Notes under the pieces: model-generated | Databases searched by the model: none | What the model saw: only the letters and a program-made list of their open reading frames with translations | Told to the model about the DNA's origin: nothing | Position numbers and translations under genes: made by a program | Shown: one piece after another, positions 4,786 through 64,000 of the stretch | Numbering within the stretch: position 1 is the stretch's first letter | How the letters are laid out: every line of letters starts with the position of its first letter | IMG/VR virus record: IMGVR_UViG_3300037467_000627 | Length of the DNA: 64,000 nucleotides | Direction: 5' to 3' (one strand) | Source: a virus

Positions 4786-5357
4786 CAGGCGAGATCCTTG
4801 ATCCTCAGGTAGCCGTCCAGCATCCACCGGTAGCGGCTGACAGTGTCCTCGAGGTCGGGGCGCACGCGGTGCATCTCGCGACTCGGAACGTCGGCGTCCA
4901 TCCTGACGTACAGATCGGGGTTGACGATCTTCATCGTCTCGATGATCGAGGTGATGTCGATGTTCCGGTAGTGGAAGCGCTCAACCAGAGGGTCGGGAGC
5001 GTGCCACTCCATGAAGGAGCGATCGAACTGCACCGAGCTGCCGCACATCGGGTGCTTGCTGATGCCGTTCGTGACGACGAAGTGATCGAGCGCCTCCCAG
5101 GCGTGATGCTCGATGGCACCTTCCTTCTTGTTGATGACCGACTGGAACAGGCCGGAGTTCGCGTGCATCTTCTTGACGAACGGATCAGCGCTGACATCCC
5201 AGTTGTACTGCTTGGGGTCGTACTTGATCAGGGTGTCGAACCAGTCCAGCTCCTGCCCCCACTGGTCGGTCACCATACAGCCAACCTCCATGACGATCTC
5301 GGTCCGTGGGTTCAGGCCGCTGGTCTCCAGGTCGATCCAGAACATCTTGTGCATCAT
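4782..5357 (-). CDS. DEDDh 3'-5' exonuclease, oligoribonuclease (Orn)-like
   Basis: FWIDLETSGL (Exo I), CGSSVQFDRSF (Exo II region), HYRNIDITS and MHRVRPDLED (H-x4-D, Exo III). Co-linear with Orn as I remember it. Confidence 0.8.
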   Translation of the reverse strand: MMHKMFWIDLETSGLNPRTEIVMEVGCMVTDQWGQELDWFDTLIKYDPKQYNWDVSADPFVKKMHANSGLFQSVINKKEGAIEHHAWEALDHFVVTNGISKHPMCGSSVQFDRSFMEWHAPDPLVERFHYRNIDITSIIETMKIVNPDLYVRMDADVPSREMHRVRPDLEDTVSRYRWMLDGYLRIKDLAW

Positions 5358-5551
5358 TTCTTGGCGCTCCCGTATGCGTCGTTGACGAGGCGCTCTGCCT
5401 CGCTGTGAGGGATTCTGTAGTCACCGTTCTCGCCGCCGAACTTAGCGGCGTTAATCTTTCCATCGCGGATCCAGGCGCGGATGGTTTGCTGCTTCATCTT
5501 CAGCAACTTGGCGAGCTCGGCAGTCGTGTAAAACTGTTCGATCCCCGTCAC
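5354..5551 (-). CDS. helix-turn-helix DNA-binding protein (excisionase/MerR-like HTH)
   Basis: 65 aa. YTTAELAKLLKMKQQTIRAWIRDGKINAAKFG is a typical HTH_17-type motif. Confidence 0.7.
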   Translation of the reverse strand: MTGIEQFYTTAELAKLLKMKQQTIRAWIRDGKINAAKFGGENGDYRIPHSEAERLVNDAYGSAKK

Positions 5552-7053: not shown

Positions 7054-7472
7054 AGTGCCCTGCCTCCGTGGCGGAACGGCCGCGTCCGGTTGTACTCGAT
7101 CTTCCGGCGAGTTTCGGCCATGAGGTCGATGTCGTGGGCGCGGGAGTAGTGAAGCAGGCGGATGAACAGGTCAGCGAACTCGCTGCCGACGCCTTCGGGC
7201 TTGGCGAGGGGAGCTTCGCAGCTGTGCACGTAGTTGCCCTGGTCGACACAGTCCCTGAAGTGCAACATCTCTCCGGTCGCATCGGCGAAGCCGTGGTCCC
7301 TGAATGCCTCGAGTGCCTCACTGATCTCCGAATGGAGTAGGGCGCACTCGTCGCCGAAGGTTCTCTTCTTGTCGGGCTCCCAGCCCTTAGCGCAGTTGAT
7401 CTCGTAGATCTCATCGGACAGCTGCTTCAGGGCAACCGACAAGGTTCCGTCATTGCAGGTGCGGCACATCAC
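7050..7472 (-). CDS. MazG-like nucleotide pyrophosphohydrolase
   Basis: 140 aa. LLHSEISEALEAFR and EGVGSEFADLFIRLLHYS...IEYNRTRP are typical of the all-alpha NTP-PPase (MazG) fold. Confidence 0.65.
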   Translation of the reverse strand: MMCRTCNDGTLSVALKQLSDEIYEINCAKGWEPDKKRTFGDECALLHSEISEALEAFRDHGFADATGEMLHFRDCVDQGNYVHSCEAPLAKPEGVGSEFADLFIRLLHYSRAHDIDLMAETRRKIEYNRTRPFRHGGRAL

Positions 7473-7738
7473 TGCTCCCTTTCGACGGACTCGCCGTCAC
7501 GCTTCTTCCGGCAGTTCTCGCAGCAAACTCCGGTGTTCATGAAGATCTGCATCCTGATCTCGCCCTTGCATTCCGTGCAGCGCTGACCAGGCAGGGCGGG
7601 CACCAGAACGAAGTCACTCTGGTTCTTCGGAACTGGCATCAGGAATGCTCGCTGTACGTTCTCCCCGATCTGCTGCATCGTCTTTCTGATCGCCGGAAGG
7701 TCGATCTGTGGCGTCGGCGGCTTGACTGGCTCGGACAC
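7469..7738 (-). CDS. hypothetical zinc-ribbon protein
   Basis: GTG start with GGAGG 10 nt upstream and high GC3 throughout. CTEC...CCENC cysteine pairs. Confidence 0.6.
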   Translation of the reverse strand: MSEPVKPPTPQIDLPAIRKTMQQIGENVQRAFLMPVPKNQSDFVLVPALPGQRCTECKGEIRMQIFMNTGVCCENCRKKRDGESVEREQ

Positions 7739-35519: not shown

Positions 35520-35556
35520 GTTGCCCTCGGCAACAATACTGGTTGCCCTAGGCAAC
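35520..35556. promoter_or_regulatory. two copies of the 15-bp palindrome GTTGCC-N3-GGCAAC, putative operators
   Basis: GTTGCCCTCGGCAAC (35520-35534) and GTTGCCCTAGGCAAC (35542-35556), 22 bp apart, in the divergent gap between 35022..35375(-) and 35681..36010(+). Confidence 0.55.
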
Positions 35557-35680: not shown

Positions 35681-36010
35681 ATGACTAAACGAGGTGGACT
35701 AGCGTCCGGACTATGGATTCACCCTGATGACCCCTGGGGAAAGGTGCATCACCTATCTGGGTATGCCTACGTGCCTATGCGACTGAATGACGACGAGCTC
35801 GGTTGGGGATTCCAATCGACACCTATCCGCACACCTCGCCGATGCGAACACGGGTACACCTGTTGTATCGAGTGCGTTGATTCGTGGGCGCTGGACTATG
35901 AGGTCAATTGGGGCGCGACGGCTGGCGGTAGAAGGTTGCGCCAGGCAATCATCGATCGATACGCCACGGACCCCAACGCGCCCGATGTGCGAGGCGTGCC
36001 TAGGCCGTGA
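35681..36010 (+). CDS. hypothetical protein (only plus-strand gene in the early arm)
   Basis: 109 aa. ATG with GGAAGG upstream. CEHGYTCCIEC cysteine cluster. Followed by its own hairpin terminator. Confidence 0.55.
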   Translation: MTKRGGLASGLWIHPDDPWGKVHHLSGYAYVPMRLNDDELGWGFQSTPIRTPRRCEHGYTCCIECVDSWALDYEVNWGATAGGRRLRQAIIDRYATDPNAPDVRGVPRP

Positions 36011-36040
36011 CGGCACGCGCTAGCTAGCACAAGGCATGAT

Positions 36041-36072
36041 GCGCCCGGACCCCGGTAGGTGGGTCCGGGCGC
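36041..36072 (+). terminator. stem-loop terminator after 35681..36010
   Basis: 12-bp perfect stem GCGCCCGGACCC / GGGTCCGGGCGC with an 8-nt loop, 30 nt past the stop. Confidence 0.6.
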
Positions 36073-36452
36073 ATTGTCGTAGGTGGGCCTGACTGGGCCG
36101 TAATGGGGCCTAGAACGCGCGTTCAGGCGGTCCGGGTAGGTGGGTGTGGGTGCGGGGGTTCAGGCCGTCAGAACGGCACACACGGCGTGTGGCGCGCGGG
36201 CCGTGGTCGGCGCGGGCCGGTAGCGGGCTAGGACTCGCTACGCGCGGGCCGTAGACGGGCCGTAGGCGGGCGCTGGGCGCGTGATGCGGTGTCGGGTGTA
36301 GGTGGCATCTAGCGGGCCGTTAGAACGGCACACACGGACGCGCCACGAGGTATGTAACACAGGCGGTGTCACATGGCGTGTCGGCACGGGATTGTCGACT
36401 GTATACAGCTGATCGTCGGCGGCATGCCGGATACTGTATACAGCAGGTAGCA

Positions 36453-36494
36453 AAACAAACCACCGACCAGGTTGCCCTGATCGGTGGTTTGTTT
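36453..36494 (-). terminator. intrinsic terminator after 36504..37295
   Basis: 14-bp perfect inverted repeat AAACAAACCACCGA / TCGGTGGTTTGTTT with a 14-nt loop. On the minus strand the stem is followed by TTTTG. Confidence 0.75.
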
Positions 36495-36503
36495 CCTACG
36501 GGG

Positions 36504-37295
36504 TCACGCGGCCAGGCGGAACCCCTTGACCTTGCTGGCGTTCTCGGTCGACTCGATGCCGTCCATCTCGCGACCGTGCGCCGCGCCGATGGCACCGACC
36601 GAGGGGGCCTCGTCCGGGCCGTACGCGTCCGACCGGTGGTTGTGGATCTGCGCGCAGGTCAGGATGGTGCCCTCGGGTGCGGCCTCCAACGCGGAACGGA
36701 TGTGCGCCTCGACGGACCGCTGCGGGCCGGTACGCCGGTTGCCGGACTTGACCGTGGCCAGCTTCGTGGCCAGCGCGTCACGGGCCTCCGTCTCCTGGTC
36801 ATCCAGGCCACCGTTGACCCGTTCCACGAGTGCGGCGTACGCGTCGGCACCGTGCGCCTCCTTGAACGCGTTCAGGGCGATCTCGCGCGCCGACTCCAAC
36901 GCGGCCAGGTGGATGACGTACGCGTCGGCGGGGTCAACCTCGACCGTGGGCCGTGACGTGACCAGCACCGCGTTGACGTCACGAACCAGGGCCAGCTTGC
37001 CCATGTCCAGGTCGTTCAACGCGTCGGACTGGAACTTGGCCCAGGCGGCCCGCATGGCGGCCTTGGTACCCTTGTCCGCGTTGCGGTACGCCGCGCCGAC
37101 CGACTCGACGTAGGCGGCCTGGTCCGTGTCGGCCGACCAGTCCGGGATGACGTACGCGGGGGCCTGGGTGGTCGGCGCGGCCTTGTCGGTGCCCGTGTTG
37201 GTGTCCGTGGCCTGGACGGGCGCGGGGGTCGGCGCGGGCGCGTCGGCGGTCTGGGCGGTCTTGCGGGTGCGGCGGGTGTTGGTGTTCGTGGTCAT
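36504..37295 (-). CDS. hypothetical protein, putative winged-helix C-terminus (paralogue B of 29800..30738)
   Basis: 263 aa, AGGAGG RBS. The C-terminus HIRSALEAAPEGTILTCAQIHNHRSDAYGPDEAPSVGAIGAAH...KGFRLAA aligns with 29800..30738. Confidence 0.65.
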   Translation of the reverse strand: MTTNTNTRRTRKTAQTADAPAPTPAPVQATDTNTGTDKAAPTTQAPAYVIPDWSADTDQAAYVESVGAAYRNADKGTKAAMRAAWAKFQSDALNDLDMGKLALVRDVNAVLVTSRPTVEVDPADAYVIHLAALESAREIALNAFKEAHGADAYAALVERVNGGLDDQETEARDALATKLATVKSGNRRTGPQRSVEAHIRSALEAAPEGTILTCAQIHNHRSDAYGPDEAPSVGAIGAAHGREMDGIESTENASKVKGFRLAA

Positions 37296-37387
37296 GATTC
37301 TCGGCCTCCTAGCCGGGTAGTGCGGCGGGCACGGTGCCCGCCTAGATCCAGAATGGGTGATGGGTAGGTGCGTGTCAATAGGTGGGC

Positions 37388-37422
37388 GGGTAACGATCTC
37401 GGCGAGTCCGGGATCGTTACCC
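37388..37422 (-). terminator. stem-loop after 37435..37830
   Basis: 11-bp inverted repeat GGGTAACGATC / GATCGTTACCC with a 13-nt loop, 12 nt past the stop. Confidence 0.5.
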
Positions 37423-37434
37423 GACTATGGGTGA

Positions 37435-37830
37435 CTACGGGGTCACTCGGTGCCAGTCGTAGGTGCGCCCGTTCCACACGGGTAGGCACGAGTCCTCGGT
37501 GGGGCACTCGGCGGAACGGACGTAGGCGGGGGTCGGCGGGGTGTCGAGGCGGTCCGTGAGGCGTGTAGCCGTGTAGGCCGACGCCATGACCGATACGACG
37601 ATCACGCTGGCCACCAAGGCGGCCCATGCGGACGCGCGGCCCATGATGCGGAAGGCGGCCCGAAGGTGTGTGCGCCGTACGTGGCGACGGTACGCGCGGG
37701 CCGAACGCGCCTCGGCCTCGGCGGTACGCGGGTAGGTGGGCCGGATACGGGTGATACCTGACTGGTCCGTGATGCATACGCGTCCGTTGCGTGTGACGGT
37801 GCGTACGTTCGTGTAGGTGGGTGTGCGCAT
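37435..37830 (-). CDS. hypothetical single-pass membrane protein
   Basis: The track ORF 37435..38097 was trimmed to the ATG at 37830 (GGGAGG RBS). ASAWAALVASVIVVSVMASAY is hydrophobic. Contains PTY/RTY motifs. Confidence 0.55.
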   Translation of the reverse strand: MRTPTYTNVRTVTRNGRVCITDQSGITRIRPTYPRTAEAEARSARAYRRHVRRTHLRAAFRIMGRASAWAALVASVIVVSVMASAYTATRLTDRLDTPPTPAYVRSAECPTEDSCLPVWNGRTYDWHRVTP

Positions 37831-37963
37831 GGTGTCTAGCCTCCCAGGCCGTGTGTAGCGGTGTGTGTGCCCGTGTGCGGGCCGTTCAGGTGTGTGTAGG
37901 TAGGTGGGTGTGGGTGGGCACCTACGAGGCGTGTAGGCGGCATAGGTGCCCGTGTAGCGCGTG

Positions 37964-39586
37964 CTAGCGGATGGCGTAGTGCGCGTCGAGTGTGTCGGCC
38001 CATGCGGTGTAGTGCGCGCGGGACGGTTCGTAGGTGCCGAGCTCCATCTCGCGCACCAACGATGCGTACGCCGCGCCGACCGTGGGGAACGCGACACCCA
38101 CCCACATGGCCCATGTGCGGCGGAACTCGTCCACCATGGCCGCTACGTCGTCGCGTAGCACGGTGCGGTAGGTGTCCCGCTCGAACGGCACGCGCGTGAC
38201 TACGCGGGTGTAGGTGTCGGGCGCTACGGGGCCGTAGGTGCCCGCGTAGCGTGCGTTGGCGCTACCGGTGAACGTGTGCCCGTTGGCGTCACGGTGCGCG
38301 CCCGCGTGACCGATAGGTGCGATGCATGCGCCGTACGCGCCGTGATCGTGTAGGCACGTGGCGACCATGGGCCACGATGCCGACGACACGCGGTCATAGG
38401 TGCCCTCGGCAACTTCCTGCCAATAGGTGCCCTCGGCAACTACGTAGGTGGTGGTGCGACCGGACTCGTCGGTGTACCACATGTGGTTGACGTCCGCGCG
38501 GGTGACCGTGCCATCCGCGTAGGTGCGCGTGGTGACCGTGCCATCGGTGGTAACGGTGTAGTCGGTGCCGTGTCGGGATGTGCCCGTGTAGGTGCGACCG
38601 GGGATCATGCCGACCCACGGCGCGGGGTCTACTACGCCCATGGCGCGCGCTACGTGGGCGCGTACGGGCCGACCGAACACGGACACGTAGGTGTCGGTGT
38701 CGGCGGGGTCCGTGGCGTCTACGGGCGCGCTAGGTGTCGCTACGAACGGCACACCGAACGCGGATACGGCGTCGGTGTCATCGGCGGTAGGTGCGTCGTT
38801 GGTGTCGGTGGCAACGTGCACGATGTAGTCACTACGCGGTGTGGTCCATGACCCGTTGTCCGTGATGATGCGAACAATGGTCCAACCGTCATCGTCGGTG
38901 TCGGCATCGATGGTGTCGTGTTCCACGGTGCCCGCGATGGTGCGGGTGATCGTGCGCCCGGTGCCGTCACCCGTGTGCATGTGCAACGTGACGTAGGTGC
39001 CGGGCGCAACGGTGTCTAGCAACACGCCGTGTTCCCCGCACGCGATGCACACGGGTGCGTCGGTGCCGGTAGGTGCGTAGGTGTCGGTGTCGGCACCGTG
39101 TACGTCTAGGTAGGACATGCCCGTTTCGGGGTCGGTGTCCGCGTCGGTGGTGTCACGGTCGAACCACGGCGTAGCGTCGGTTGCCGGAACCGTAGGTGCG
39201 CCGTAGGTGTTCGTGCCGGTAGACGCGTAGCCCATGCCATCGGCGGTACCCACGTAGCTACGCGCGGGGTCAACGGTGGTGATGGGCACGCCGTAGCGGG
39301 TAGCTAGCACGGTGGGTTCGTCGGTGTAGGTGTGGTCGGTGTGCGGGGGGGTGGGCATGTAGGTGCCGAACACATCCGCACCGGACGACAACGGTGCACA
39401 CCACACGGCGTAGCCATCGGTGTAGGTGTCGGACCCCACGTAGTAGCCCCATCCCGTAGGTGCGGTGTCGCGGTGCGCGTCGAACCACCGGGTAGCGCCC
39501 GCATGGGTGCGGTAGCCACTACGGATGATGTGTGCGGTCATGTCGGTGTGGTCGGTGTGTGCGTGGGTGCGGATGGTGTTCGTCAT
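37964..39586 (-). CDS. orphan 540-aa Thr/Tyr/Asp/His/Gly-rich protein
   Basis: ATG at 39586 with AGGGG upstream. At least 15 (G/D/P)-T-Y tripeptides, encoded by the recurrent CACCTAC heptamer. No domain recognised. Confidence 0.6.
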   Translation of the reverse strand: MTNTIRTHAHTDHTDMTAHIIRSGYRTHAGATRWFDAHRDTAPTGWGYYVGSDTYTDGYAVWCAPLSSGADVFGTYMPTPPHTDHTYTDEPTVLATRYGVPITTVDPARSYVGTADGMGYASTGTNTYGAPTVPATDATPWFDRDTTDADTDPETGMSYLDVHGADTDTYAPTGTDAPVCIACGEHGVLLDTVAPGTYVTLHMHTGDGTGRTITRTIAGTVEHDTIDADTDDDGWTIVRIITDNGSWTTPRSDYIVHVATDTNDAPTADDTDAVSAFGVPFVATPSAPVDATDPADTDTYVSVFGRPVRAHVARAMGVVDPAPWVGMIPGRTYTGTSRHGTDYTVTTDGTVTTRTYADGTVTRADVNHMWYTDESGRTTTYVVAEGTYWQEVAEGTYDRVSSASWPMVATCLHDHGAYGACIAPIGHAGAHRDANGHTFTGSANARYAGTYGPVAPDTYTRVVTRVPFERDTYRTVLRDDVAAMVDEFRRTWAMWVGVAFPTVGAAYASLVREMELGTYEPSRAHYTAWADTLDAHYAIR

Positions 39587-39774
39587 GGTGTGCCCCTAGG
39601 TGTGATCGGTGGGTGGTAGGTGGTGCATGAACAACGTACGTGTAGGCGCATCGTAGGTGTAGGGGTAGGTGTGGGTTTCGGGATCTTGTTACCATACTGC
39701 AATGTACGCACCGTGATAAGGCGTCACAAGGTGTAGTCGTGTGATGTGTGCGTGTAGGTGTGGCATGAGTGGTG

Positions 39775-40046
39775 GTTGCTAAGGGCAACAAAGCGCCGAA
39801 CGAGTGCATGACTTCGTTGCCAAAGGCCCCTATTGAGTCATCGTTGCCTCGTGCAACCTTTGCCATGGGCAACAATACACCTTTGTTGACCTCGGCAACG
39901 ATTACGTTGCCATCGGCAACTGATGCCAAAGGCAACCGATAACGTACATTATCGGTCGGCATATCGATGCCTGACGCAACGAGTTTTGTTGCCAACGGCA
40001 AACACCTTTGATGCCCTCGGCAACTAAACCGATTGCCCTTGGCAAC
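39775..40046. repeat. phased array of 11 copies of the 15-bp palindrome GTTGCC-N3-GGCAAC
   Basis: Sites start at 39775, 39816, 39843, 39859, 39885, 39906 (perfect), 39922, 39966, 39988, 40010 and 40032. The last four are exactly 22 bp apart. No convincing ORF. Confidence 0.85.
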
Positions 40047-40124: not shown

Positions 40125-40142
40125 GATGATAGTACTATCATT
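40125..40142. promoter_or_regulatory. palindrome GATGATAGTACTATCATT (perfect core TGATAGTACTATCA)
   Basis: Same core as the 15941 operator-like palindrome. Confidence 0.5.
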
Positions 40143-40199: not shown

Positions 40200-40795
40200 G
40201 ACACCTGACACCCTACAGAGTATATATACTATATATATACTTTAATTACTGTATAATATACACGAGCTATTCACGGGCGGTCCACCTGTAGCGTTTGCCC
40301 ACGTCACGGGCCATCTTTGGGGTTTGTGCGGGTTTCCTGACCCCCATTCCGTCCCCCTCTGTGCGGCATGCCTCACTGACACCGACCGTTTTGTACCATG
40401 TCTCCCCTTGTAGCGTTGTACCATCAGTCTCCCCTTCTCCTCCCTTTTGGGCCTATATAAGGACCCCGTATTAATTAATTCCCCGACGATCGCCAAAGAT
40501 GCCCCGTGACGTGGGAAAACACACCAGGGGATTAGTTTTTCGGCCGCTGGCGTTTATCCCATGGACGGAATTAATCCGAGTGACCTGCCTGGTGATAGTG
40601 CTATCCATTGTCAGACCCTACTCCACAAGTTTTGTACCAAGTCTAGCCTATTCTAGACCGTTTTGAATAAACACGAGCGGTATACTCACCAAAATTATCA
40701 GAAATCCGGATTAATTGCCCTGATATGACAAGTCTAACGCGAAACCGTCCACTTCGGCCACGTTCTGGCGCCTTTTTAGACTGAAAGTAGACACG
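40200..40795. other. AT-rich, ORF-free, repeat-dense segment (candidate origin / regulatory hub / ncRNA locus)
   Basis: TATATATAC x2 (40221-40240). Three copies of TTGTACCAnnGTCT (40388, 40413, 40629). 13-bp long-range inverted repeat CCCACGTCACGGG (40298) / CCCGTGACGTGGG (40503). TGATAGTGCTATC at 40593. ATTAAT-containing motifs. Confidence 0.6.
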
Positions 40796-41430: not shown

Positions 41431-41876
41431 AGTGATGCAACCTTGTCAGCGAAGTGGACATGACCGATGATCTCGTTGGGAAGAATGCGGGACTCGGCTT
41501 CGGTGATGAGCTCGTCTAGAACCTCGTATCGTGCGTTGGCGGACTTGGCTTGCTGGCTGCGGACGGCCAGCCGATGGGCGCGGCGGCACAGCAGGCCACG
41601 ACAGCCTTGCATGTACCCTGCGCGCCTACCGTGCTGGCCGGAGAACTGAGGCTGGGCTACCTCGGCCATGAAGTGAGCGATGAGCTTGGTGATCAGCTCG
41701 GTCCGCGTGCCGTCTAGCACCGCGCCGAGGTCGCGCACTGGGCAGGGAGTGCCCGCGACGTCGGCAACGTGCATCTTCAGCTGGGCGTCCCAGTAGACCG
41801 GGCCGTGCTCCATGTACTCCAGGCACTGCTTCGTGAGATTGGTCGCTTCTTCGCCGACCGGGTAGGGGTTAACCAT
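41427..41876 (-). CDS. hypothetical protein
   Basis: The track ORF was trimmed to the ATG at 41876, which overlaps the primase-helicase stop by 8 nt. Confidence 0.6.
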   Translation of the reverse strand: MVNPYPVGEEATNLTKQCLEYMEHGPVYWDAQLKMHVADVAGTPCPVRDLGAVLDGTRTELITKLIAHFMAEVAQPQFSGQHGRRAGYMQGCRGLLCRRAHRLAVRSQQAKSANARYEVLDELITEAESRILPNEIIGHVHFADKVASL

Positions 41877-43974
41877 GCTGGACACTCCTGAGACGGACGG
41901 GGGGACGACCAGCCTTACCGGTCTGAACCTTGACTTCCTCGATGAATCCAGCCTTGATGAGCTCATTGATGGCCTCGTTGACCTGCTTGGTTCCGATGTT
42001 CTTGGTCTTCATCGCGTCATACAGCATCGAGCGGTTCGGGCCGAGTCCGTTGCCGAATTCAGCCTCCTTGCGCTTGATGTAGTTCAGCACACGATCGATG
42101 AACTCCTGCTGCTGCGACTTGCCGATCTGAGCGCCGACGAGCCTGAGATTCGCGAGGATGTAGGGGTGGAGCTTCTCGATGAACGCTACGTCGAGCTCGC
42201 TGACTTCGGTCGCGCGGCGGTTGATTGCGTGACACAGCATGAGCTTCTTGTAGTGGATCTCGAGGCGGGCGATCATGTCATCGTCGGACCGCTTGATCAT
42301 CAGATCGACCGGAGCGAAGAACTCCTTGAACGCCTGGCGACCCTCGGGGGTTACCTCGAGGATGACCGGGGCGTCTGTGGGGTTCTTCCTCTGCGAGGCA
42401 ATCGCGATCCCGCTGAGCGTATTGAGTGCCTGCTGCAGATTGATCGCCACTCCACCGAAGTAGTCGTCGCGCTGCTTGGTCGGCCCGGATACATACAGCC
42501 AGCGGTTGAGGTAGCCCGACGCCTGATCCTGGCTGTCGAGGAGCTTGCGGAGCGCCCTCGGCTGGCTGGAAGTGCTGAACGTGGCGAACGCATCGCGGGC
42601 AGCCTTGCGTCCGTGCGTCTGAGAGGAGTTGGTGATGATGTGACGCCCGTCGATGAAGTCCATGATCTTGGTCTTCAGCGTAGACCCTTGGATGGATGAC
42701 TTCGCCAGGATGGTCGACAGCTCCGAGAACTCGACGTAACCCTTGATTGGCCTGGGTGCGGCTACACCCTTGAGGGTTCCCTCGAACTCTCCGATCAGCG
42801 CTTCGCCGGACGCTACCTCGCCGACGTAGCGAGCTCCCTCAACCATCACGCCGATGTCATTCTCAGGCATCGCGTAGCCGATGGCCTTTGCGATGTAGTT
42901 CTGTGCGGTCGACTTACCCGAGCCCGTCTTGCCGAGGTAGCAGATCGGCAAGTTCGCCATGACCGGTCGGTCGCCACCCATCAACACATCCCTGCCCGCC
43001 GCCAGGCCAAGCAGGAGAAGCCCGCTAAACAGGTGATACTCCTCCGGACTGTAGTCGTGGCTCGTTGCGTCGCACCACTGATACAGGAAGGTGTCCTGGT
43101 AGTCCTTCAGAGCTTCCCGCCACGGAAAACTTGGAATGTTTGCGTCTGAGTCAAGTTCCGGGTCGTAGGCGTCGACTTCCGGATCGATGGAGATAACCTC
43201 CGCGAGAGGCTCATCAGGCTCCGGAGGTATGCCCGTTGCAAGCGGAACAAAGCCGAGCTGTGTGGGCGGCGGCACAAGATGCAGTGCTGGGGGTGTGGCC
43301 CCATCCTCCACCGGCTGCACGCCTGGAGAATCAGGCGCAACTGGCTGTACCGCACTGGGTCGCGGCGCGGGTTGCAAAACCGGAGGGGGTGGAACAGGTG
43401 TAGATACAACGACCGGCGGTACGAGGTCATACCCGCCTCCTACTTTCTCGTTGAACGAATAGCCCAGATCTTCGCCCATGGCGCGCCTGAGCTTGTGGAA
43501 CATGGCACCCTCTTTATATCCGGGCACCGGGAATCCGTGGTGGTATGCAGCGATGTCGTAACCATCGCCGCCCTCCTGGCAGCCTCCGCAGAACCAAGTA
43601 TTCTTCTCGGTATTCAGCCAGGCGGAAGGGTTAGCGTCCTTATGACTGGGCTTCGGACAGGACACCATGATCGACTCGGTGCGGCCGGACGAAACCTTTG
43701 GCTTCATCTTTCCGCACCACTTCGCGTACGCCTCGAGGATGCCGATTCCGTCGAGGATCCTGTCCAGCTCGATGTCCTCGTCTGTACGCGTGTGAGACGA
43801 GTCTGAGTCAGTGTCCGGAATGAGTGCAGGGTCAAACTGAGGTGTAGGCGGCGACGCCGGAGCTACAGCTTCTTGTTCAGCTGCGCGCTTGGCGTTCGCC
43901 GCCGCCTGAAGCTGACGAGCCCTCTCCAGAAGCGAGAGAGGCTGGTCAGTCACGGAATGGGTCTCCCATCTCAA
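41869..43974 (-). CDS. DNA primase zinc-finger / P-loop helicase fusion protein
   Basis: CPKPSHKDANPSAWL...WFCGGCQEGGD (CHC2-type zinc finger of DnaG-like primases). Walker A LGKTGSGKST about 330 aa downstream. 701 aa. Confidence 0.7.
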   Translation of the reverse strand: MRWETHSVTDQPLSLLERARQLQAAANAKRAAEQEAVAPASPPTPQFDPALIPDTDSDSSHTRTDEDIELDRILDGIGILEAYAKWCGKMKPKVSSGRTESIMVSCPKPSHKDANPSAWLNTEKNTWFCGGCQEGGDGYDIAAYHHGFPVPGYKEGAMFHKLRRAMGEDLGYSFNEKVGGGYDLVPPVVVSTPVPPPPVLQPAPRPSAVQPVAPDSPGVQPVEDGATPPALHLVPPPTQLGFVPLATGIPPEPDEPLAEVISIDPEVDAYDPELDSDANIPSFPWREALKDYQDTFLYQWCDATSHDYSPEEYHLFSGLLLLGLAAGRDVLMGGDRPVMANLPICYLGKTGSGKSTAQNYIAKAIGYAMPENDIGVMVEGARYVGEVASGEALIGEFEGTLKGVAAPRPIKGYVEFSELSTILAKSSIQGSTLKTKIMDFIDGRHIITNSSQTHGRKAARDAFATFSTSSQPRALRKLLDSQDQASGYLNRWLYVSGPTKQRDDYFGGVAINLQQALNTLSGIAIASQRKNPTDAPVILEVTPEGRQAFKEFFAPVDLMIKRSDDDMIARLEIHYKKLMLCHAINRRATEVSELDVAFIEKLHPYILANLRLVGAQIGKSQQQEFIDRVLNYIKRKEAEFGNGLGPNRSMLYDAMKTKNIGTKQVNEAINELIKAGFIEEVKVQTGKAGRPPVRLRSVQHG

Positions 43975-44773
43975 GAACCCGAGCCTGGTCGGCGTGAGGC
44001 CGAAGGTCGACAGGACGTCCCCCCATGTCGAGGAAGAAGGTCGGGTCTGTGGTCTTACGATTGCGGCCTAGCGGTAGACGCATGAGATTCCCCAGATCTT
44101 TCCCGTCGAGCGTGTCCTGCTTAGGGAACACCTCGATCTGGAAGTTCTTGTAGCCTGTAGTTGGCTCTTCGCTGACGTGCCTGTAGAAGTTGTCTCCGCG
44201 ACTCGGCGTGAATTCCCCGGTCGCCTGTAGTGCGATCTTTGCTACCTCTCTGACCTCGGCGGCGGGCATCTCGCCAGTGAAGCCGTAGACATGGATGCCC
44301 TTGCCGCCGGTGTAAGCCACGGCGCAGGGCAGCTGAAGGTCTCGCGTGATGACCTTGGCAAGCTTCGAGCCAAGCATCTTCATCTGGTACTTATACCAAT
44401 CCCGCGACGGATGACGCCGATCGCGCCACTCCTCGCGGGGATTACCCTTGTAGATCTGGAAGTTCTCGCCATGCTGGAACGAGATCCAGGTGCCTTCCTT
44501 CTCGAGATCGATATCGAAGGCGAACAACTTGCAAGTGCCCTCAGGGCTCAGCATGTAGTGGCCATAGGTCTTGTCTCCGGACAGGTGATCACGGAGGTGG
44601 GTCATCTTGAAACCCACTGGACCGTAGGGGGCGAGGCGATTCGTGCCTTTTTCTGCATCGATCTCTGCAAGGCGAGTGTCTGGGCAGTAGCTGCCGTCGT
44701 CGAACTGGATCGCCTTGACATCTCGCCGAACGATGAATTTCTTGGCGAGCTGAACAGCGAGATCTTCTGCCAT
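43946..44773 (-). CDS. archaeo-eukaryotic-type primase-polymerase (AEP / prim-pol)
   Basis: Start at the ATG at 44773 (AGGAG RBS). FAFDIDLE (DxD), YTGGKGIHVYGF (GxGxH), later MRLPLGRN, all typical of AEP catalytic motifs. Confidence 0.7.
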   Translation of the reverse strand: MAEDLAVQLAKKFIVRRDVKAIQFDDGSYCPDTRLAEIDAEKGTNRLAPYGPVGFKMTHLRDHLSGDKTYGHYMLSPEGTCKLFAFDIDLEKEGTWISFQHGENFQIYKGNPREEWRDRRHPSRDWYKYQMKMLGSKLAKVITRDLQLPCAVAYTGGKGIHVYGFTGEMPAAEVREVAKIALQATGEFTPSRGDNFYRHVSEEPTTGYKNFQIEVFPKQDTLDGKDLGNLMRLPLGRNRKTTDPTFFLDMGGRPVDLRPHADQARVLEMGDPFRD

Positions 44774-45076
44774 CTGTACTCCTGGGAAGAGGCGACCGAT
44801 ATTACATACAGCTGTTACAGTGGAAACATTAGCCGCACGGGCGTCTACGGTCAATCATAGGTGTTATCCTATGCTTGACTATCGGCGAGCTGGCTCGCTA
44901 CTCTGTGTGCACCTCCTTGTATCTGCGATCGGGCGACGGCAGATGAGGGCAGTAGGCGACGACCTGGCACCTGGTCTGGGAAGAACCGGTGTCGGGTCGT
45001 CGCTGCTTCTCCACGCGCGCCCGCGTCGTGTACCGTAGCTGCACGCCCGTAGCTACGAGAGATATCGGATACTTTC

Positions 45077-58236: not shown

Positions 58237-61200
58237 GTGCAAGGCTACATGAACATTACTGTTCGTGTTGCGGCAGCTCGAGCTCAGCAGCAGATCAAGC
58301 AGCTGCAGAGTCAGGTTGCAATGCTGGAGCGTGAGTTGGGCCGCGCCAGCGCTGCCGGTGGTTCTTTCATCGGAGACAAGCACATCTCCGCGATGGCCAA
58401 GTGGGGTAATCAGGTCCAATGGACCGGCAGACAGATTACCTATAACTTCACTCTGCCCTTGGCGATCGCTGCCGGTGCGGCTACGAAGTGGCAGCTAGCG
58501 AACGAGAAGGCCTTCACGCAGGTTCAGAAGGTCTACGGTGACACTCAGGCGGCGGCCGCCTTCTACATGAAGACCCAGAAGGGTCTCACGCAGGAGATGG
58601 CTAACCAGAAGGCCACCGAGACGTTCAATCATGAACTTGAGGCTCTCCAAAAGAACTTCAAGGCGCTGAGTAACTACTACGGCGTACAGCAAGACGAGGT
58701 CATCAACGTCGCCGCAGCCTGGGCTGCCGCTGGAGCATCCGGCAAGGATCTCGCGGTCGCGACAGATGCCACGATGAAGGCCATCATCCTGGGCGATATG
58801 AACGCTGCCGATGCTACGCAGGCGCTCATCTCGATCCAGTCGCAGTATCAGCTGAACAGCGAAGAGTTGATGAAGACTCTGGCGCAGCTGAACGCAGTTG
58901 AAAACCAGACCGGCATCTCGATGCAGGGTCTGATTGAAGGCTTTGAAAGAGCCGCTGGGACGGCGCGCACCGCTGGAGTCTCTACTCGCGAGCTCGCCGC
59001 CATGCTGGCCGCACTCACACCTGCCACTGGTTCCGCCGCGAACGCTGGTAACGCCCTCAAGACCATTCTGTCTCGCCTCATGGCTCCGACCAAGCAGGCT
59101 GCAGACGTCATGGCCGAGATGGGCATCAACGTCACCGACATGAGCTGGAAGTCGGCCAACGGCGCTGAACGCCTCAAGATTATGGAGCAGCGCTTCGATA
59201 AGCTGTCTGACTCCGGCAAGGCGTTTGTCAGTTCGATTATCGCCTCGCGCTGGCAGGTGAACAAGTTCGACGTCCTGATGCGAGAACTCGGTAGCTCGAC
59301 TGGGTTCTATCAGAAGGCTCTCGATGCCACATCGTCGGACACCAAGGTCTTCCAGATTGCTAACCAGGAGCTCCAGAAGGTTCTTGACAGCAATCCGCGC
59401 AAGCTACAGATCATCTGGGCCACACTTCAGAACGGCGCGGCAGATGTAATCCAGCCGCTCATCCCGTACATCATCTATCTGGCCGGTGTCATCAAGGATG
59501 CCGTCCTGGCCTTCCAGGACTTGCCGCCCGTCGTACAGAAGGCTGCTCTGGCGCTGGCGATCATGGTCGCCCTGTTCGGACCACTTCTGAAGTACTTCGG
59601 TTCGACTGCAACACTTATTGGGCAGCTAGGACTGTTCTTCGGTAAGTTCCTGGTGCTCCCGGTACGGGCCGCTTCATTGGCGCTCGGGGGATTGGGGTTC
59701 GTCCTATCCAGCGTCGGTACGTTGTGGGGTGCAACGGTCGGCATCCTAGTCCGTGGCGGCGCGGCCGTAGCTACCGGCATCGGAGCAATGGCTGCTGGCG
59801 TAGTCAGGTCGTTCGGTGCCGTCGTCGTAGGCGCTCGCGTTCTCGCGGGCATCCCTGCGGCAGTCTTTGCTACCTGGCGCGGAGCCATGGCGGCGATGAT
59901 GGGAGCCTGGGTCGCCTTCGGTGCGGCAGTCCGTGCGGCATGGCTTGGCGTGCAGCTCGGAATGATCGCTGCGACGAGGATGGGAGCTATTGCTCAGGCT
60001 GGCCTCCAGGCCACCATGATGCGCTCCTGGATGATCTTCCTCGGTGCGTGGCGTACGACTGGCATGGTGATGTTCGGCGCAGCTGGCATCGGCATGCGCA
60101 CCGCCCTACTGGCCGCCCTCAGTCCAGCGAAGTTGTTCGCAGCGATCGGCGCAGGTCTTTCGCGCCTCGGTCCGCTCCTTCTTCGGTTCATCACTGGTCC
60201 GGTCGGCCTAGTCGTCACGGCAGTTATCACCCTGCTCCTTCTGTGCCGCAAGCAGATCGAGCAGATCTGGACAAACATCTCTGACTGGTGGAACAGCAGT
60301 AACAACAACCTAGTCGAGAACATCATCAAGGCTTGGTACGCCCTCCCAGAGGGTGTGCGCAACGCGCTAGTCGCGGTCGCTAAGATCGTCGAGACTGTCG
60401 CGATGAAGATCTACGAACTCTTCAGCTACATCAACCCCTTCGCGCATCACTCGCCATCTCTGGTCGAGAACGTCACGCGAGGCATGGCGGTCATTAAGAA
60501 GGAGTTCGCAGGTCTTGGCTCTATTGAAGGCGACATCAAGGGCGCCTACCGAGCTATCAAGGCTTTTGGTGGAGCAGCTGCCGCCCTCGGTCTGGATGAC
60601 TTCAGCCGTGACCTAGCGCAGATGAAGGAGTTTGCTCCTTCGCTCGTTCCAGGCTTCATGGCTCTCCATGGCGTGCTCGGAGTCCTGAACAAGGATCTCG
60701 CCGTCATGGAGCAGCGCATCGCTGCCCAGAAGGCTGTTGTAGACAGGTGGTCTGCTGCGCTGGACGCAGCCAACGCTCGCCTCGACGCGGCGCAGGACAA
60801 GCTCGACGCGCTCCAGAAGATTTCGCAGAATTACTCGGATCTTCTTGACGCCGCGAAGAGCAGGCTTCAGGACTGGGCTGACACGCCCATTCAGGGCATG
60901 CAGGCGATGTCCGACAAGATCTTTGCCAACGAGATGGCGCAGAAGAAGCTCCGTCTCGAGATGATGAAGATGGAGGACGTAGTCGGTCCTCTGGATGACA
61001 TCAAGGGCAAGATTGACGCGATCAACGGCTCGCAAGAGTTGCTGCGCGGACAGCAGGCTGACCTCCGATCTGCCGGTGCCGGTTCCGAGATCCTCAAGGT
61101 CTACGACCAGGAGATCGGCAAGCTTGAAGAGCAGAAGAACACGTACGGCGACGCGTCTGAAGCACTGCAGAAGATGCAGGATCAGCTCGACGCATTGCAG

Positions 61201-64000
61201 CGCGCAGGTGAGCGTCTCGACCTTGAGAACTCCCTGAAGTTCGACCCACTGACTCGTCAGATCCAGCAGGCGTCCAACGCTATGCAGGAGATGCCCTTCG
61301 ATGTCATCATGGCGGGCATCAAGGGGTCGAAGGCTGATGTCGACAAGTACACCAATGCACTCAACACTGCCAACGCGGCAGTCGACAAGCAGAAGCAGGT
61401 CGTAGATCAGCTGACGGCTGCCCGCGACGCGACAAGTAAGCAGCTTGACGTAGAGAAGGCGAAGCTTGACAAGCTGAACGACGCTTACTCGGCACTCAAG
61501 GATGCGATCAACGACGTCGAGTCTGCGATGCGCGACATGTCAGCTGCCGCCCAGGCTGCTGAGTCTGCACAGAAGGCGAAGAAGGCAAAGGAGGGTGGTC
61601 CCCTCACTCTAGCCGACATGCAGGGTGGAGACTTCGCCGATGTCGGCGGTACTGGTGTCCAGCTTCGCAAGGACTGGAATGACCAGTCTGCTTTGATCGA
61701 TCAGCTCACGAAGGATTTGCAGACTAAGGCTGCGAACGCCTTCAAGGGTATCGACATGTTCGGTCCGATCAAGCAGAAGTGGAACGAGTTTAAGGGCTGG
61801 TGGACCGCCAATATCAGCCCAATCTTTGCGACGATCGGCGATTTCCTCAGTCACATCTTTGACAATGTAGACTGGGGTGGAATCTTTGAACCGTTCCAGA
61901 AGGCGGCAGGCTTCATCGCGAAGGTCGGCAAGGCCTTGTGGGCTCTGTTCAGTCCAGCGTTCAAGGAGATTGTCGACGGAGTCAAGAAGGGTATCAAGCA
62001 GTTCTGGGAAGAGGTCGGCCCTGCACTGTCTGGCCTGAAGGACATCGTTGAGCCAACCAGGAAGGCTTGGGCTACGCTTTGGCCAGCCCTCAAGGGTTTG
62101 TTCGGTCTCATCATCGGCGCAGTCCTCCTCGTCCTGACTACCGTCTTTAACATCCTCGGCAACATCATCGGACCTGTCCTTCAGACGATCGGTGCTGTTC
62201 TTAACGGCATCATCGACATCATCAAGGGCGTTATCATGGTCGTCGCTGGAATCATCAGCGGCGACTGGAAGACGGTACTTGATGGCCTCTGGCAGATCCT
62301 CAAGGGCGTTGTTCAGATTATCTGGGGTATCCTCAAGGGTGCCGCAAAGGTAATCTGGGGAATTGTTAAGGGCATCGTCGAAGGTATCGTAGACTTCTTT
62401 ACCTGGCTCTGGGACGTCCTGGTCGGACACTCGATCATCCCAGACATGGTGAACGCCATCATCGCAGTCTTCAAGTGGCTTAACTCGATTCCGAAGTGGA
62501 TCTGGGACAATGTACTGAAGCCGATTGCCAACTTCTTCAAGTCCATCTGGGACAACTTCCTGAAGCCTGGCGTAACAAACATCGCCAAGGGTACGATTGC
62601 GATCTGGCAGGGCATCAAGGCGATTGTTCAGTGGATCTGGCTTAATGTACTTCTTCCGATTGCAAATTACTTCAAGGGAGTATGGACCGGTTATCTGTCG
62701 CCAGCGATCAATACGATCAAGGACGGCATCATCACAGGGTTCCAGAAGATCGGAGCTCTGATCAAGTGGGTCAACGACAAGTTCATCACTCCACTGAAGA
62801 CCGCGTTCTCGCTGTTCACTGACGCCGTTGGCAAGATCTTCGACAAGATCAAGGACAAGATCTCCGGGCCGATTGACAAGATCAAGGGCTGGATCAACAA
62901 CAACCTGATCGACCCACTCAACAAGGTCGTGAAGTTGTTTGGCATCACTATCCCGAAGTTCAGCACGGGTGGTGGGATCAGTACCGAGGGTCACGGGCAG
63001 AATTCTGCGGGTCGTCTGGCTACCGGTGGACCGGTGCGTGGGTTCTCGTCGTCATACAAGGCGGACAACATCCCAGCCTGGCTTACGGCTAACGAGTACG
63101 TGCAGCCGGTGTCAGCTGTTAGACACTACGGCGTCGGTTTTATGGACGCGATCCGCCGTAAGCAGATTCCGAAGGATGCGTTCAGCACTGATGGATTCTT
63201 CCTCGGCGGTCTGATTGACAAGGGCATGAAGACGGTTGACTCCTGGATGGAGAAGGGTCCGGAGTTTGCTGTCAACAAGATTCTCAACCCAGCTATCGGA
63301 ATGCTTAACCGTGGCTTCCCGACGCCAGAGTTTGTGAACAAGATTGCAACCGGAGTTCCAACCTCACTGCGCGACTCCATCATCAAGTGGAGTAAGGGCA
63401 AGTTCACTGCCGATGGTCCAGCTGGTCCTCCCGGAAACGTTGTCAATTATCGAGGTGTGCGACTTAACGAGCGCACCATTCAGATGCTCCTGGCGGCCGA
63501 GAGGATTCTTGGTAAGCAGTTCCACATCACCCAGGGGTCGTACTCCACCAGTGTTGCCGCGTCGGGTTCCACTCACGCAGGCGGCGGCGCGATGGACACC
63601 AACGATGCTGGAGCAGGCTGGGAGCGCGCGCAGAACGCTTTGCGTCAGGTTGGCTTTGCGGCCTGGTGGCGTCACCCGTGGCAGGGTCCATGGAATGATC
63701 ACATTCACTCGATCGCACTTGGCGACCCGACCGCCTCGCAGGCAGCCAAGAACCAGATGGCGGCTTACAAGCGTGGTGGAGATGGACTGGGGCACGGCAT
63801 GTTCGGCGGTGGACTTGTTCCTACCAAGAACGGCGTGATCTCCAGCCTGCGCGGCCTCCAGAGCGGTGCGATCATCAAGGGTGGCCAGGGTGGCACTCAG
63901 GTCGTGATTGGCGAGGGTACGCGAGACGAATTGGTACAGCCGCTGCCGAAGAACTGGAAGAACAACACGGATAGCGGTTCGGGCAAGACCGAGATCCATA
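58237..64000 (+). CDS. tail tape measure protein (5' 1921 codons; continues beyond the right edge)
   Basis: GTG at 58237 behind GAGGGAG (ATG at 58249 in frame). Frame open to the window end, so absent from the ORF track. TP901-type TMP core (TPATGSAANAGNALKTILSRL), hydrophobic Gly/Ala-rich block, W/F-periodic repeats, C-terminal peptidase-like motif. Confidence 0.85.
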   Translation, partial: MQGYMNITVRVAAARAQQQIKQLQSQVAMLERELGRASAAGGSFIGDKHISAMAKWGNQVQWTGRQITYNFTLPLAIAAGAATKWQLANEKAFTQVQKVYGDTQAAAAFYMKTQKGLTQEMANQKATETFNHELEALQKNFKALSNYYGVQQDEVINVAAAWAAAGASGKDLAVATDATMKAIILGDMNAADATQALISIQSQYQLNSEELMKTLAQLNAVENQTGISMQGLIEGFERAAGTARTAGVSTRELAAMLAALTPATGSAANAGNALKTILSRLMAPTKQAADVMAEMGINVTDMSWKSANGAERLKIMEQRFDKLSDSGKAFVSSIIASRWQVNKFDVLMRELGSSTGFYQKALDATSSDTKVFQIANQELQKVLDSNPRKLQIIWATLQNGAADVIQPLIPYIIYLAGVIKDAVLAFQDLPPVVQKAALALAIMVALFGPLLKYFGSTATLIGQLGLFFGKFLVLPVRAASLALGGLGFVLSSVGTLWGATVGILVRGGAAVATGIGAMAAGVVRSFGAVVVGARVLAGIPAAVFATWRGAMAAMMGAWVAFGAAVRAAWLGVQLGMIAATRMGAIAQAGLQATMMRSWMIFLGAWRTTGMVMFGAAGIGMRTALLAALSPAKLFAAIGAGLSRLGPLLLRFITGPVGLVVTAVITLLLLCRKQIEQIWTNISDWWNSSNNNLVENIIKAWYALPEGVRNALVAVAKIVETVAMKIYELFSYINPFAHHSPSLVENVTRGMAVIKKEFAGLGSIEGDIKGAYRAIKAFGGAAAALGLDDFSRDLAQMKEFAPSLVPGFMALHGVLGVLNKDLAVMEQRIAAQKAVVDRWSAALDAANARLDAAQDKLDALQKISQNYSDLLDAAKSRLQDWADTPIQGMQAMSDKIFANEMAQKKLRLEMMKMEDVVGPLDDIKGKIDAINGSQELLRGQQADLRSAGAGSEILKVYDQEIGKLEEQKNTYGDASEALQKMQDQLDALQRAGERLDLENSLKFDPLTRQIQQASNAMQEMPFDVIMAGIKGSKADVDKYTNALNTANAAVDKQKQVVDQLTAARDATSKQLDVEKAKLDKLNDAYSALKDAINDVESAMRDMSAAAQAAESAQKAKKAKEGGPLTLADMQGGDFADVGGTGVQLRKDWNDQSALIDQLTKDLQTKAANAFKGIDMFGPIKQKWNEFKGWWTANISPIFATIGDFLSHIFDNVDWGGIFEPFQKAAGFIAKVGKALWALFSPAFKEIVDGVKKGIKQFWEEVGPALSGLKDIVEPTRKAWATLWPALKGLFGLIIGAVLLVLTTVFNILGNIIGPVLQTIGAVLNGIIDIIKGVIMVVAGIISGDWKTVLDGLWQILKGVVQIIWGILKGAAKVIWGIVKGIVEGIVDFFTWLWDVLVGHSIIPDMVNAIIAVFKWLNSIPKWIWDNVLKPIANFFKSIWDNFLKPGVTNIAKGTIAIWQGIKAIVQWIWLNVLLPIANYFKGVWTGYLSPAINTIKDGIITGFQKIGALIKWVNDKFITPLKTAFSLFTDAVGKIFDKIKDKISGPIDKIKGWINNNLIDPLNKVVKLFGITIPKFSTGGGISTEGHGQNSAGRLATGGPVRGFSSSYKADNIPAWLTANEYVQPVSAVRHYGVGFMDAIRRKQIPKDAFSTDGFFLGGLIDKGMKTVDSWMEKGPEFAVNKILNPAIGMLNRGFPTPEFVNKIATGVPTSLRDSIIKWSKGKFTADGPAGPPGNVVNYRGVRLNERTIQMLLAAERILGKQFHITQGSYSTSVAASGSTHAGGGAMDTNDAGAGWERAQNALRQVGFAAWWRHPWQGPWNDHIHSIALGDPTASQAAKNQMAAYKRGGDGLGHGMFGGGLVPTKNGVISSLRGLQSGAIIKGGQGGTQVVIGEGTRDELVQPLPKNWKNNTDSGSGKTEIH

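Follow-up and report, generated by a model that had tools for sequence, protein, structure and literature searches.

This locus raises the question of why a few kilobases of a phage genome should carry a single seven-base word dozens of times, almost without exception on one strand and in coding and non-coding DNA alike. The DNA concerned is a stretch of 64,000 nucleotides from the IMG/VR virus record IMGVR_UViG_3300037467_000627, referred to below as the window, and the word is GTAGGTG. An exact search located 31 copies on the plus strand and one on the minus strand (37919-37925) within 36055-39760, which agrees with the count of an earlier note made from the sequence alone, whose listed copy positions are all correct to within 1-3 bases. 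The same note had put the number of copies elsewhere at about two; the actual figure for the rest of the window (~60 kb) is seven on the plus strand and two on the minus strand, and these few copies are mostly in the sense orientation too. Over the whole window and both strands the word occurs 41 times, compared with 4.7 ± 2.1 in dinucleotide shuffles (maximum 9), and the comparison with a Markov background that the note had recommended gave 31 plus-strand copies against an expectation, for 36000-39800, of 0.4 (order 0) or 1.1 (order 1). GTAGGTG is the commonest heptamer of 36000-39800 and reaches 25 copies in a 2.5-kb stretch, whereas no heptamer exceeds eight in any other such stretch of the window. 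The array region has a G+C content of 64-68% versus about 59% elsewhere in the window, and its plus strand is G-rich, with a GC skew of +0.15 to +0.17. Since the credible genes of the region all lie on the minus strand, the word reads CACCTAC in gene sense, on a strand that is C-rich, G-poor, and T-poor. The statement of the earlier note that copies occur in intergenic DNA was borne out (10 non-coding copies in the window), while its unbroken interval from 36055 to 39760 had to be divided: a gene for a 263-aa protein in the middle (36504-37295, minus strand) contains no copy, so the array consists of 37364-39760 (27 copies in gene sense, approximately one per 93 bp) and a separate group of four at 36055-36304. 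The term "island" used for the region is misleading as well, as it is a conserved syntenic module of a phage clade and not an insertion.

Genes for a portal, a terminase-like protein, an AEP primase-polymerase, a D5-type primase-helicase, and an SNF2 helicase, together with two tRNAs, mark the window as a phage genome; it belongs to an uncultured actinobacterial phage that is a distant relative of Rhodococcus and Gordonia phages with direct terminal repeats (DTR). A megablast search against 50,697 phage records returned no match for the array region and only a tRNA match for its flank, and the primase-helicase is 25-34% identical to those of the Rhodococcus phages Perlina, ReqiDocB7, and Reynauld and of cluster CS Gordonia phages. 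Beyond its own record, the Thr/Tyr/Asp-rich protein encoded within the array (540 aa; its gene is called the T/Y gene below) has 12 metagenome homologs with 38-68% identity, and the 263-aa protein has 18 homologs with 51-80% identity. Ten independent syntenic loci (L001, L002, L003, L004, L006, L008, L096, L097, L098, and L100) were compared with the window, giving 11 loci in all. The array, whose conservation the earlier note had proposed to examine in relatives, was present in all ten, with turnover of the individual positions, even though protein identity between the loci is no higher than 40-55%. CACCTAC is the top heptamer of the equivalent region in 11 of 11 loci, with 17-33 copies per locus, one per 72-118 bp, co-directional with the genes; summed over the 11 loci, 264 copies are forward and nine reverse, and the arrays extend over 1.3-2.9 kb. 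No relative with a variant word was found, and scans of viral and metagenome collections added no loci to these ten; since CACCTAC is unchanged in every relative, no co-variation is available to expose the reader of the word. No comparable array was found in the cultured relatives Reynauld, Perlina, Jellybones, and Kvothe.

The coding part of the array allows selection on nucleotides to be separated from selection on protein. The T/Y gene (37964-39586, minus strand) contains 18 copies, and a small gene (37435-37830, minus strand), whose 131-aa product is predicted to have a single membrane segment, contains three, all in the Thr-Tyr frame. The earlier note had the word always read as xxC-ACC-TAC (Thr-Tyr) inside genes; this applies to 14 of the 18 copies in the T/Y gene, the remaining four being read GCA-CCT-ACx (Ala-Pro-Thr). 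Two or three reading frames are used by the word, and Ala-Pro-Thr across the homologs is written with GCA-CCT, both minor codons, in 19 of 24 cases. Under a null model in which the protein was held fixed and synonymous codons were resampled from the gene's own usage, 6.6-9.8 copies were expected per gene, whereas 15-19 were observed (24 in L098); pooled over seven genes, the figures are 121 observed versus 59 expected (z = 11). CACCTAC and words overlapping it lead the ranking of all heptamers under this resampling, while the control Thr-Asp word CACCGAC reached only z = 3. Codon shuffling left roughly 2-4 copies per gene. All 16 Thr-Tyr pairs of the window's T/Y gene use ACC and are preceded by a codon ending in C, and the dipeptide itself is three-fold over-represented in the protein (16 versus 5.4 expected from composition).

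Approximately 70% of the copies are inside coding sequence, and the non-coding remainder shows the same orientation. In 11.9 kb of non-coding DNA from the 11 loci, 58 copies are forward and two reverse, against about two expected from composition, and both reverse copies are the 3' arms of hairpins. The ~115-bp spacer that follows the T/Y gene is denser in copies than coding sequence (14 copies in 759 bp across the loci). The word is also sharply bounded: the exact form was counted 165 times, one-mismatch variants at positions 1, 3, 4, and 6 occur at most eight times each, and a T follows the word in only two of 175 cases, the flanks being otherwise without information and the logo flat. Individual sites are not retained. 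In an alignment of seven T/Y proteins the word falls in 64 columns, 36 of them occupied in one gene only and seven shared by four or more genes, and yet these genes, which range from 388 to 696 aa, each hold 15-19 copies. In L100, where the T/Y gene is reduced to 264 aa, there are 17 copies in 1.3 kb (one per 72 bp) and five more downstream, giving about 22. Inserted segments tend to be without the word, as in a 621-bp gap in L006. The spacing is near exponential (median 77 bp, coefficient of variation 0.9), with no 10-11-bp helical periodicity.

The excess at synonymous sites, the minor codons used for Ala-Pro-Thr, the enrichment in non-coding DNA, and the conservation of the array despite turnover support the proposal of the earlier note that a nucleic-acid-level signal constrains the protein; a codon signature of a protein repeat family, which the note had named as the finding that would overturn this, accounts under resampling for only about half of the count. 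We are highly confident that selection maintains a cis-acting recognition word here, namely CACCTAC with any next base but T, of which some 17-33 sense-oriented copies are kept across the start of a leftward early gene block. It is likewise very probable that selection acts on nucleotides and copy number and not on particular protein residues, and, with the same assurance, the T/Y gene can be described as a carrier that evolves fast and is permissive in composition, its codons and residues being adapted to accommodate the word. As a natural example in which a signal in the nucleic acid overrides the genetic code, across a whole gene and in every member of a clade, it is unusually clean: the word fixes codons, including minor ones, and drives the Thr-Tyr and Ala-Pro-Thr content of the protein as well as its lack of lysine. 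Its unusual features are the density, about one copy per 100 bp over kilobases, and the visible rewriting of a protein-coding gene.

The divergence of the carrier is consistent with this description. The T/Y gene shows a nonsynonymous divergence (dN) of 0.39-0.55 and a ratio to synonymous divergence (dN/dS) of 0.42-0.77, compared with a dN/dS of 0.11-0.22 for the primase in the same genome pairs, while its dS is 0.3-0.9 versus 0.7-1.6 for the primase. The 263-aa gene, with a high GC content at third codon positions (GC3, 0.94), also has a low dS, so codon bias contributes to the silent-site effect. The dS values of the T/Y and 263-aa genes are up to about four-fold below that of the primase-helicase (L001/L004: 0.32 and 0.36 versus 1.32); either silent sites are constrained module-wide or the module was exchanged more recently.

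The module is arranged, in gene sense, as a TATATA block, palindromes, a leader, the T/Y gene, a spacer with a hairpin, the 131-aa gene, a second hairpin, the 263-aa gene, a terminator-like hairpin, and the distal copies, with the main array (37364-39760, minus strand) covering the leader, the T/Y gene, the spacer, the small gene, and a second spacer. The AT-rich TATATA block (40221-40284, minus strand) includes two sigma-70-like promoter matches pointing toward the array, is kept in the relatives about 200 bp before the palindromes, and resembles a block that Rhodococcus phage Reynauld carries immediately inward of its left terminal repeat; an early promoter or an unwinding element are possible roles for it. 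Directly upstream of the first array copy lies a block of 11 GTTGCCnnnGGCAAC palindromes (39775-40046). This 15-bp palindrome has 25 occurrences with at most two mismatches versus 2.6 expected, 11 of which form the 270-bp block; two more follow the module at 35520-35556, and near-copies are found within the T/Y gene at 38399 and 38426. The palindrome layout is the same in all relatives, and the palindromes probably either bind a dimeric regulator as its operators or fold into hairpins in the RNA. A perfect 16-bp palindrome of another kind, ATGATAGTACTATCAT, was identified at 40126-40141 beside a GACAAATTTTTTGGGTACC stretch, and the corresponding gap of L100 contains two copies of the ATGATAGTACTATCAT box, each followed by AAATTTGTCAGGTG. 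Between the palindromes and the T/Y gene, the leader spans 174 nt and holds four copies of the word; when a promoter was looked for there, the one box that emerged, TTGTGA-17-TACATT, was common to the window and L100 alone, L097 matching it in part.

Three hairpins punctuate the remainder of the module. The first, at 37917-37953, immediately follows the T/Y stop codon, with arms GGGCACCTA (37917-37925) and TAGGTGCCC (37945-37953), and has equivalents in L001, L002, L004, L008, L098, and L100. The arm GGGCACCTA holds most of the only reverse-orientation copy in the array region, and the rare reverse copies are thus explained by the word serving as a hairpin arm. This hairpin may act as an attenuator, a terminator, or an RNA-stability element. 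The second, read from the sequence at 37388-37422 after the small gene, has an 11-bp stem (GGGTAACGATC...GATCGTTACCC) and likely marks the end of the T/Y transcription unit. The third, at 36453-36494 (minus strand), is terminator-like with a T-rich tail, follows the 263-aa gene, and divides it from the four non-coding distal copies (36055-36304, minus strand), which have equivalents in L100 (four), L004 (two), and L001 (one). An Rfam hit at this third hairpin was rejected as spurious.

The proteins of the module offered few points of comparison. The 540-aa T/Y protein contains no lysine and a single glutamine, with 17% Thr and 6% Tyr; it begins with a His/Thr-rich stretch (MTNTIRTHAHTDHTD), and an invariant Cys/His cluster near its C-terminus (C411, H413, C421, H427, and H431) suggests a metal site. 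Its homologs are 264-713 aa long and differ by large insertions and deletions. It matched no family in Pfam, PHROGs, or NCBIfam, and a tblastn search against phages gave no match; nor did profile searches with it and a second module protein against PDB sequences. The 131-aa protein had no match in Pfam, PHROGs, or NCBIfam either, and in the same databases the sole family match of the 263-aa protein was phrog_6708, of unknown function. The model of the 263-aa protein has a C-terminal winged helix whose top fold matches are forkhead-DNA complexes, Fur/Zur, and linker histone (probability up to 0.99, with weak E-values), and in all relatives its gene keeps its place immediately after the array.

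The position of the module with respect to the genome ends can be estimated from cultured DTR phages. In Reynauld, the terminal repeat is ~390 bp, an AT-rich block lies inside its left copy, a primase is the first gene, and a large inward-facing gene is the last. In Reynauld, Kvothe (cluster CS), and Jellybones, the primase is 1-2 kb from the left end and the homologs of the 263-aa protein are 2.5-3.3 kb from the right end. Both landmarks place a putative genome terminus of the phage in the gap at about 39.8-40.85 kb; this placement is by synteny, the metagenomic contigs themselves continuing across the gap. The array would therefore probably adjoin the right terminus, as the first DNA inward from that end, with its G/T-rich strand running 5' to 3' toward the putative end and the early genes apparently transcribed inward. 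The terminal non-coding DNA of Kvothe (L102, last 760 bp) has short repeated boxes of its own, GAACCCTAG and GCGGTCTAG, and the right end of Jellybones (L101) has another, TAGTGGTACTAG; members of the broad phage group may use different words near the right end.

As to how the word is read, we tentatively favor, by analogy with stoperators, an orientation-dependent protein-binding array on double-stranded DNA that acts on early transcription, a reading that we regard as possible and not as probable. The word would be a monomer-type site for a phage-encoded protein, and its binding, like that of cluster A mycobacteriophage stoperators, would depend on orientation relative to RNA polymerase. Once the binder had accumulated, the large number of occupied sites would act as a roadblock or occupancy zone, and this would shut off or meter transcription of the terminal early unit and the DNA downstream of it. 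The T/Y protein is the only component strictly co-occurring with the array, so autoregulation by this protein would be the simplest form of the mechanism, the neighboring winged-helix protein being a weaker candidate binder. Such an arrangement has a precedent in actinophages, where asymmetric, transcription-oriented sites bound by monomers occur in more than 20 copies per genome; the cluster A stoperators (L5 gp71-type) are moreover independent sites without fixed spacing (PMC9283540). The tie between orientation and transcription is seen here as well (264:9 overall and 58:2 in non-coding DNA), and random, unphased spacing is as expected for independent monomer sites. The differences are nevertheless considerable. 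Stoperators have a 13-bp consensus, as opposed to seven bases plus "not T" here; they are distributed genome-wide, mostly in short intergenic gaps, as opposed to a local and mostly coding array of about 2.5 kb (1.3-2.9 kb) with approximately one copy per 100 bp; and stoperator phages are temperate with an identified repressor (helix-turn-helix plus stoperator domain), while no repressor or integrase was seen in this phage.

Several further observations weigh against binding on double-stranded DNA. No binder for CACCTAC has been identified, and 7-8 bp is short for a specific monomer site. The AlphaFold model of the T/Y protein (predicted local distance difference test score 48) is too poor for a structure search, and no DNA-binding domain is recognizable in it; Kvothe encodes a homolog of the 263-aa protein and has no CACCTAC in its last 6 kb, so the winged-helix protein is weakened as a specific reader. 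Mapping did not succeed for the promoter or for the ends of the transcript, the position of the terminus depends on distant relatives, and the sense orientation, the match to a single transcription unit, and the C-rich, G-poor transcript, predicted to be accessible, fit an RNA reader about equally well. Whatever its identity, the reader implied by such a pattern would be highly specific, conserved, and directional, and the DNA on which it acts is probably the first of the phage to be used after infection. Finding it could reveal a new way in which actinophages control or protect the early region and would supply a compact, orientation-dependent sequence tool for Actinobacteria, and the word and the array are simple enough for a direct test by recoding.

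A reading at the RNA level, which we hold to be nearly as likely, is that some 25 copies of CACCUAC, exposed in an early sense mRNA unusually rich in C, poor in G, and little structured, would serve in one of two ways. As a sponge or decoy they would occupy a sequence-specific RNA-binding protein or endoribonuclease of the host or the phage, as CsrB does CsrA and pseudo-ToxI does ToxN; as programmed cleavage sites they would shorten the life of the early mRNA, as the sites of T4 RegB do. The sense orientation holds throughout, non-coding DNA included (58:2), and the array starts just past the palindromes and mostly ends at the small-gene hairpin, which corresponds roughly to one transcription unit. 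Copy number and not position is conserved, as would be required of a titrating RNA, and the copies are often situated in leaders and spacers ahead of ribosome-binding sites. The predicted unpaired probability is 0.24 at the motif versus 0.09 for background and 0.19 for G-free control words (p = 0.01); this gain over matched controls is small and therefore lends weak support. Against an RNA reader, four copies in the window and four in L100 lie past the terminator-like hairpin of the 263-aa gene, the first copy of the spacer is buried in the stem of the conserved hairpin, Rfam has no matching family, and we know of no binder or nuclease with CACCUAC specificity. RNA sponges such as CsrB/RsmZ for CsrA and the phage pseudo-ToxI against ToxN carry about 5-22 motif copies per transcript, with copy number decisive, and pseudo-ToxI provides a precedent for a phage anti-defense decoy. 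These RNAs are non-coding, however, with the motifs in defined loops or in tandem 36-nt units, whereas the carrier in this case is a translated mRNA.

Only slightly less likely is that the word gives a polar signal, at the end of the genome, to a machine of the phage that translocates DNA. The candidates would be a terminase nearing the right terminal repeat, with the sites promoting commitment to the terminal cut, the primase-helicase, for which they would mark places of priming or loading on the strand that ends 3' at the terminus, or the DNA-entry machinery; one-way repeated sites would raise the chance of recognition, as with FtsK-orienting polar sequences (KOPS), Chi, and TraB recognition repeats. 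This agrees with the placement of the array directly inside the putative right terminus and with the G/T-rich strand running 5' to 3' toward it. Near-absolute orientation, random spacing, turnover, and a kept copy number are, in addition, the signature of a moving enzyme whose capture at each site is uncertain. In phage T7, arrays of short repeats adjoin the terminal repeats, and the sites of the T7 primase (GGGTC, TGGTC) are rich in G and T. The T7-like arrays adjoining terminal repeats and the hexamers of the P1 pac site in pacA consist of 6-7-bp words over spans of ~100-200 bp; they, too, lie beside a terminal repeat or packaging site, one of them inside a gene, but the present arrays cover 1.3-2.9 kb, and related DTR phages have none. 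Kvothe, Jellybones, Reynauld, and Perlina share the end architecture without the array, which can therefore be no general requirement of this system of packaging or replication. Furthermore, no mirror-image array was found across the gap, the terminus itself is placed by synteny, and a heptamer confined to this region is unfit for genome-wide priming. Among the candidates listed by the earlier note, the stoperator-like half-site and the packaging signal have both survived, and neither is proven.

It is about as unlikely that these features represent a previously undescribed cis-acting "coded carpet", laid out over kilobases where a linear phage genome has its leading end. Its 25 or so one-way words would run through a gene that is dispensable, evolves fast, and exists largely to carry the signal, to be read by a moving DNA enzyme (a nuclease, terminase, or primase-helicase) or as an RNA decoy for a host defense nuclease. 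What can be stated is that the locus is an oriented recognition-site array that resembles known short-word systems and fails defining features of each where tested. Origin iterons embedded in initiator genes (the lambda origin in gene O, the type I iterons of P4 alpha) are another such system. Like the array, they constrain a coding gene and lie near an AT-rich block and a primase-helicase module; they are 8-22 bp long, however, number 4-10 within 100-300 bp, and are usually phased, whereas some 25 copies are here spread at random over kilobases. Iterons also adjoin an AT-rich unwinding element, and the AT-rich block of this module lies 470-650 bp upstream, past the palindromes.

A host Chi- or KOPS-like word, copied by the phage to tame AdnAB or RecBCD or to engage FtsK, is very improbable. 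GTAGGTG is G/T-rich like known Chi sequences and lies on the strand that would end 3' at the putative right end, the right orientation for an entering nuclease, and Chi (RecBCD/AddAB) as well as KOPS and SpoIIIE recognition sequences (SRS; FtsK/SpoIIIE) are likewise short, G-rich, and polar, with number and orientation mattering and not exact position. Those words are spread over the host chromosome and oriented with replication, their skew (for KOPS/SRS) flipping at the origin and dif, while the array is local and phage-borne. In 1.14 Mb from 58 actinobacterial dnaA/oriC loci, GTAGGTG was counted 49 times in leading-strand and 106 times in lagging-strand orientation, compared with a mean of 70 for any heptamer, although the true host of the phage may differ from these; the word is therefore not enriched, and its weak, codon-type bias is opposite to that of Chi. 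The Chi- or KOPS-like host motif suggested in the earlier note accordingly found no support in the origin regions. On a high-GC sense strand, GTAGGTG would require a TAG stop or the rare codons GTA or AGG, which makes it no cheap leading-strand word, and related phages do without it. No Chi is known for mycobacterial AdnAB (PMC5314763, PMC12848934), and if the reader were nevertheless the host end-resection machinery, the word would be the first Chi-like sequence for actinobacterial AdnAB/RecBCD.

The chance that the array is a by-product of a Thr/Tyr-rich protein and high-GC3 codon usage, with the flanking copies as decayed coding DNA, is slighter still. The Thr (17%) and Tyr (6%) contents, the preference for ACC and TAC codons, the 14 of 18 in-gene copies in the Thr-Tyr frame, and the mostly sense orientation of the other copies in the window speak for it. 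As a sufficient explanation it was refuted by the resampling, the non-coding copies, and the frame use: resampling yields about half of the observed number in every homolog, the second frame is written in the minor codons GCA-CCT, and Thr-Tyr is itself in three-fold excess and turns over; the spacers are denser than coding DNA, and the lack of conservation past the heptamer rules out recent decay of a coding repeat. Equally remote is a fossil of repeat expansion, an option raised in the earlier note, or a microhomology spread by recombination in a hypervariable gene, which the variable gene length (264-713 aa), the large insertions and deletions, and an exact 18-mer with the word occurring twice in non-coding DNA might suggest; however, Tandem Repeats Finder reported no array and no tandem structure was seen, the direct-repeat families are 64-86% identical and built on the heptamer alone, the flanks carry no information, inserted segments tend to be without the word, and the identical heptamer persists across lineages with diverged silent sites. 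A dedicated translation-initiation element was rejected, as a copy is often present 20-30 nt upstream of starts but at no fixed position and not in every locus (7, 6, and 3 of 11), and so was anti-Shine-Dalgarno mimicry, since CACCUAC is one base from the 16S tail CACCUCC but the A at position 6 is invariant. A 14-nt match to actinobacterial 16S rRNA near 39665 is one that we take to be within chance expectation.

Additional elements were observed around the distal copies. An exact 18-mer, GGTAGGTGGGTGTGGGTG, which contains the word, occurs at 36135-36152 and 37899-37916, both in non-coding DNA and 1.76 kb apart, and a 23-nt direct repeat, GGCCGTYAGAACGGCACACACGG, is present at 36163-36185 and 36315-36337. 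The segment 36195-36283 is rich in GGGCCGT-type words, and the palindromic decamer CTGTATACAG is found twice, 35 bp apart (36401-36410 and 36436-36445), just past the hairpin of the 263-aa gene. The open reading frame at 35681-36010 is the only one on the plus strand of the leftward arm and converges on the module; its coding statistics are weak (GC by codon position 0.62/0.55/0.60), and an opposite-strand gene is called at this position in L002, L003, L008, L096, and L100, the other relatives being without it. If it were transcribed, the distal copies would appear as GUAGGUG in the 3' part of its transcript.

Across the gap, the primase-helicase (41869-43974, D5/DUF3987-type) carries an N-terminal DnaG/T7-type zinc ribbon (CPKPSH...FCGGC), which in T7-type primases is the module that reads the template sequence, and the separate AEP primase-polymerase is encoded just upstream of it, at 43946-44854. 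Finally, two further heptamers with a mild one-strand excess were identified elsewhere in the window, namely TCAAGGG (60001-63750; eight forward, none reverse) and TTGACGA (5001-7500; seven forward, none reverse).

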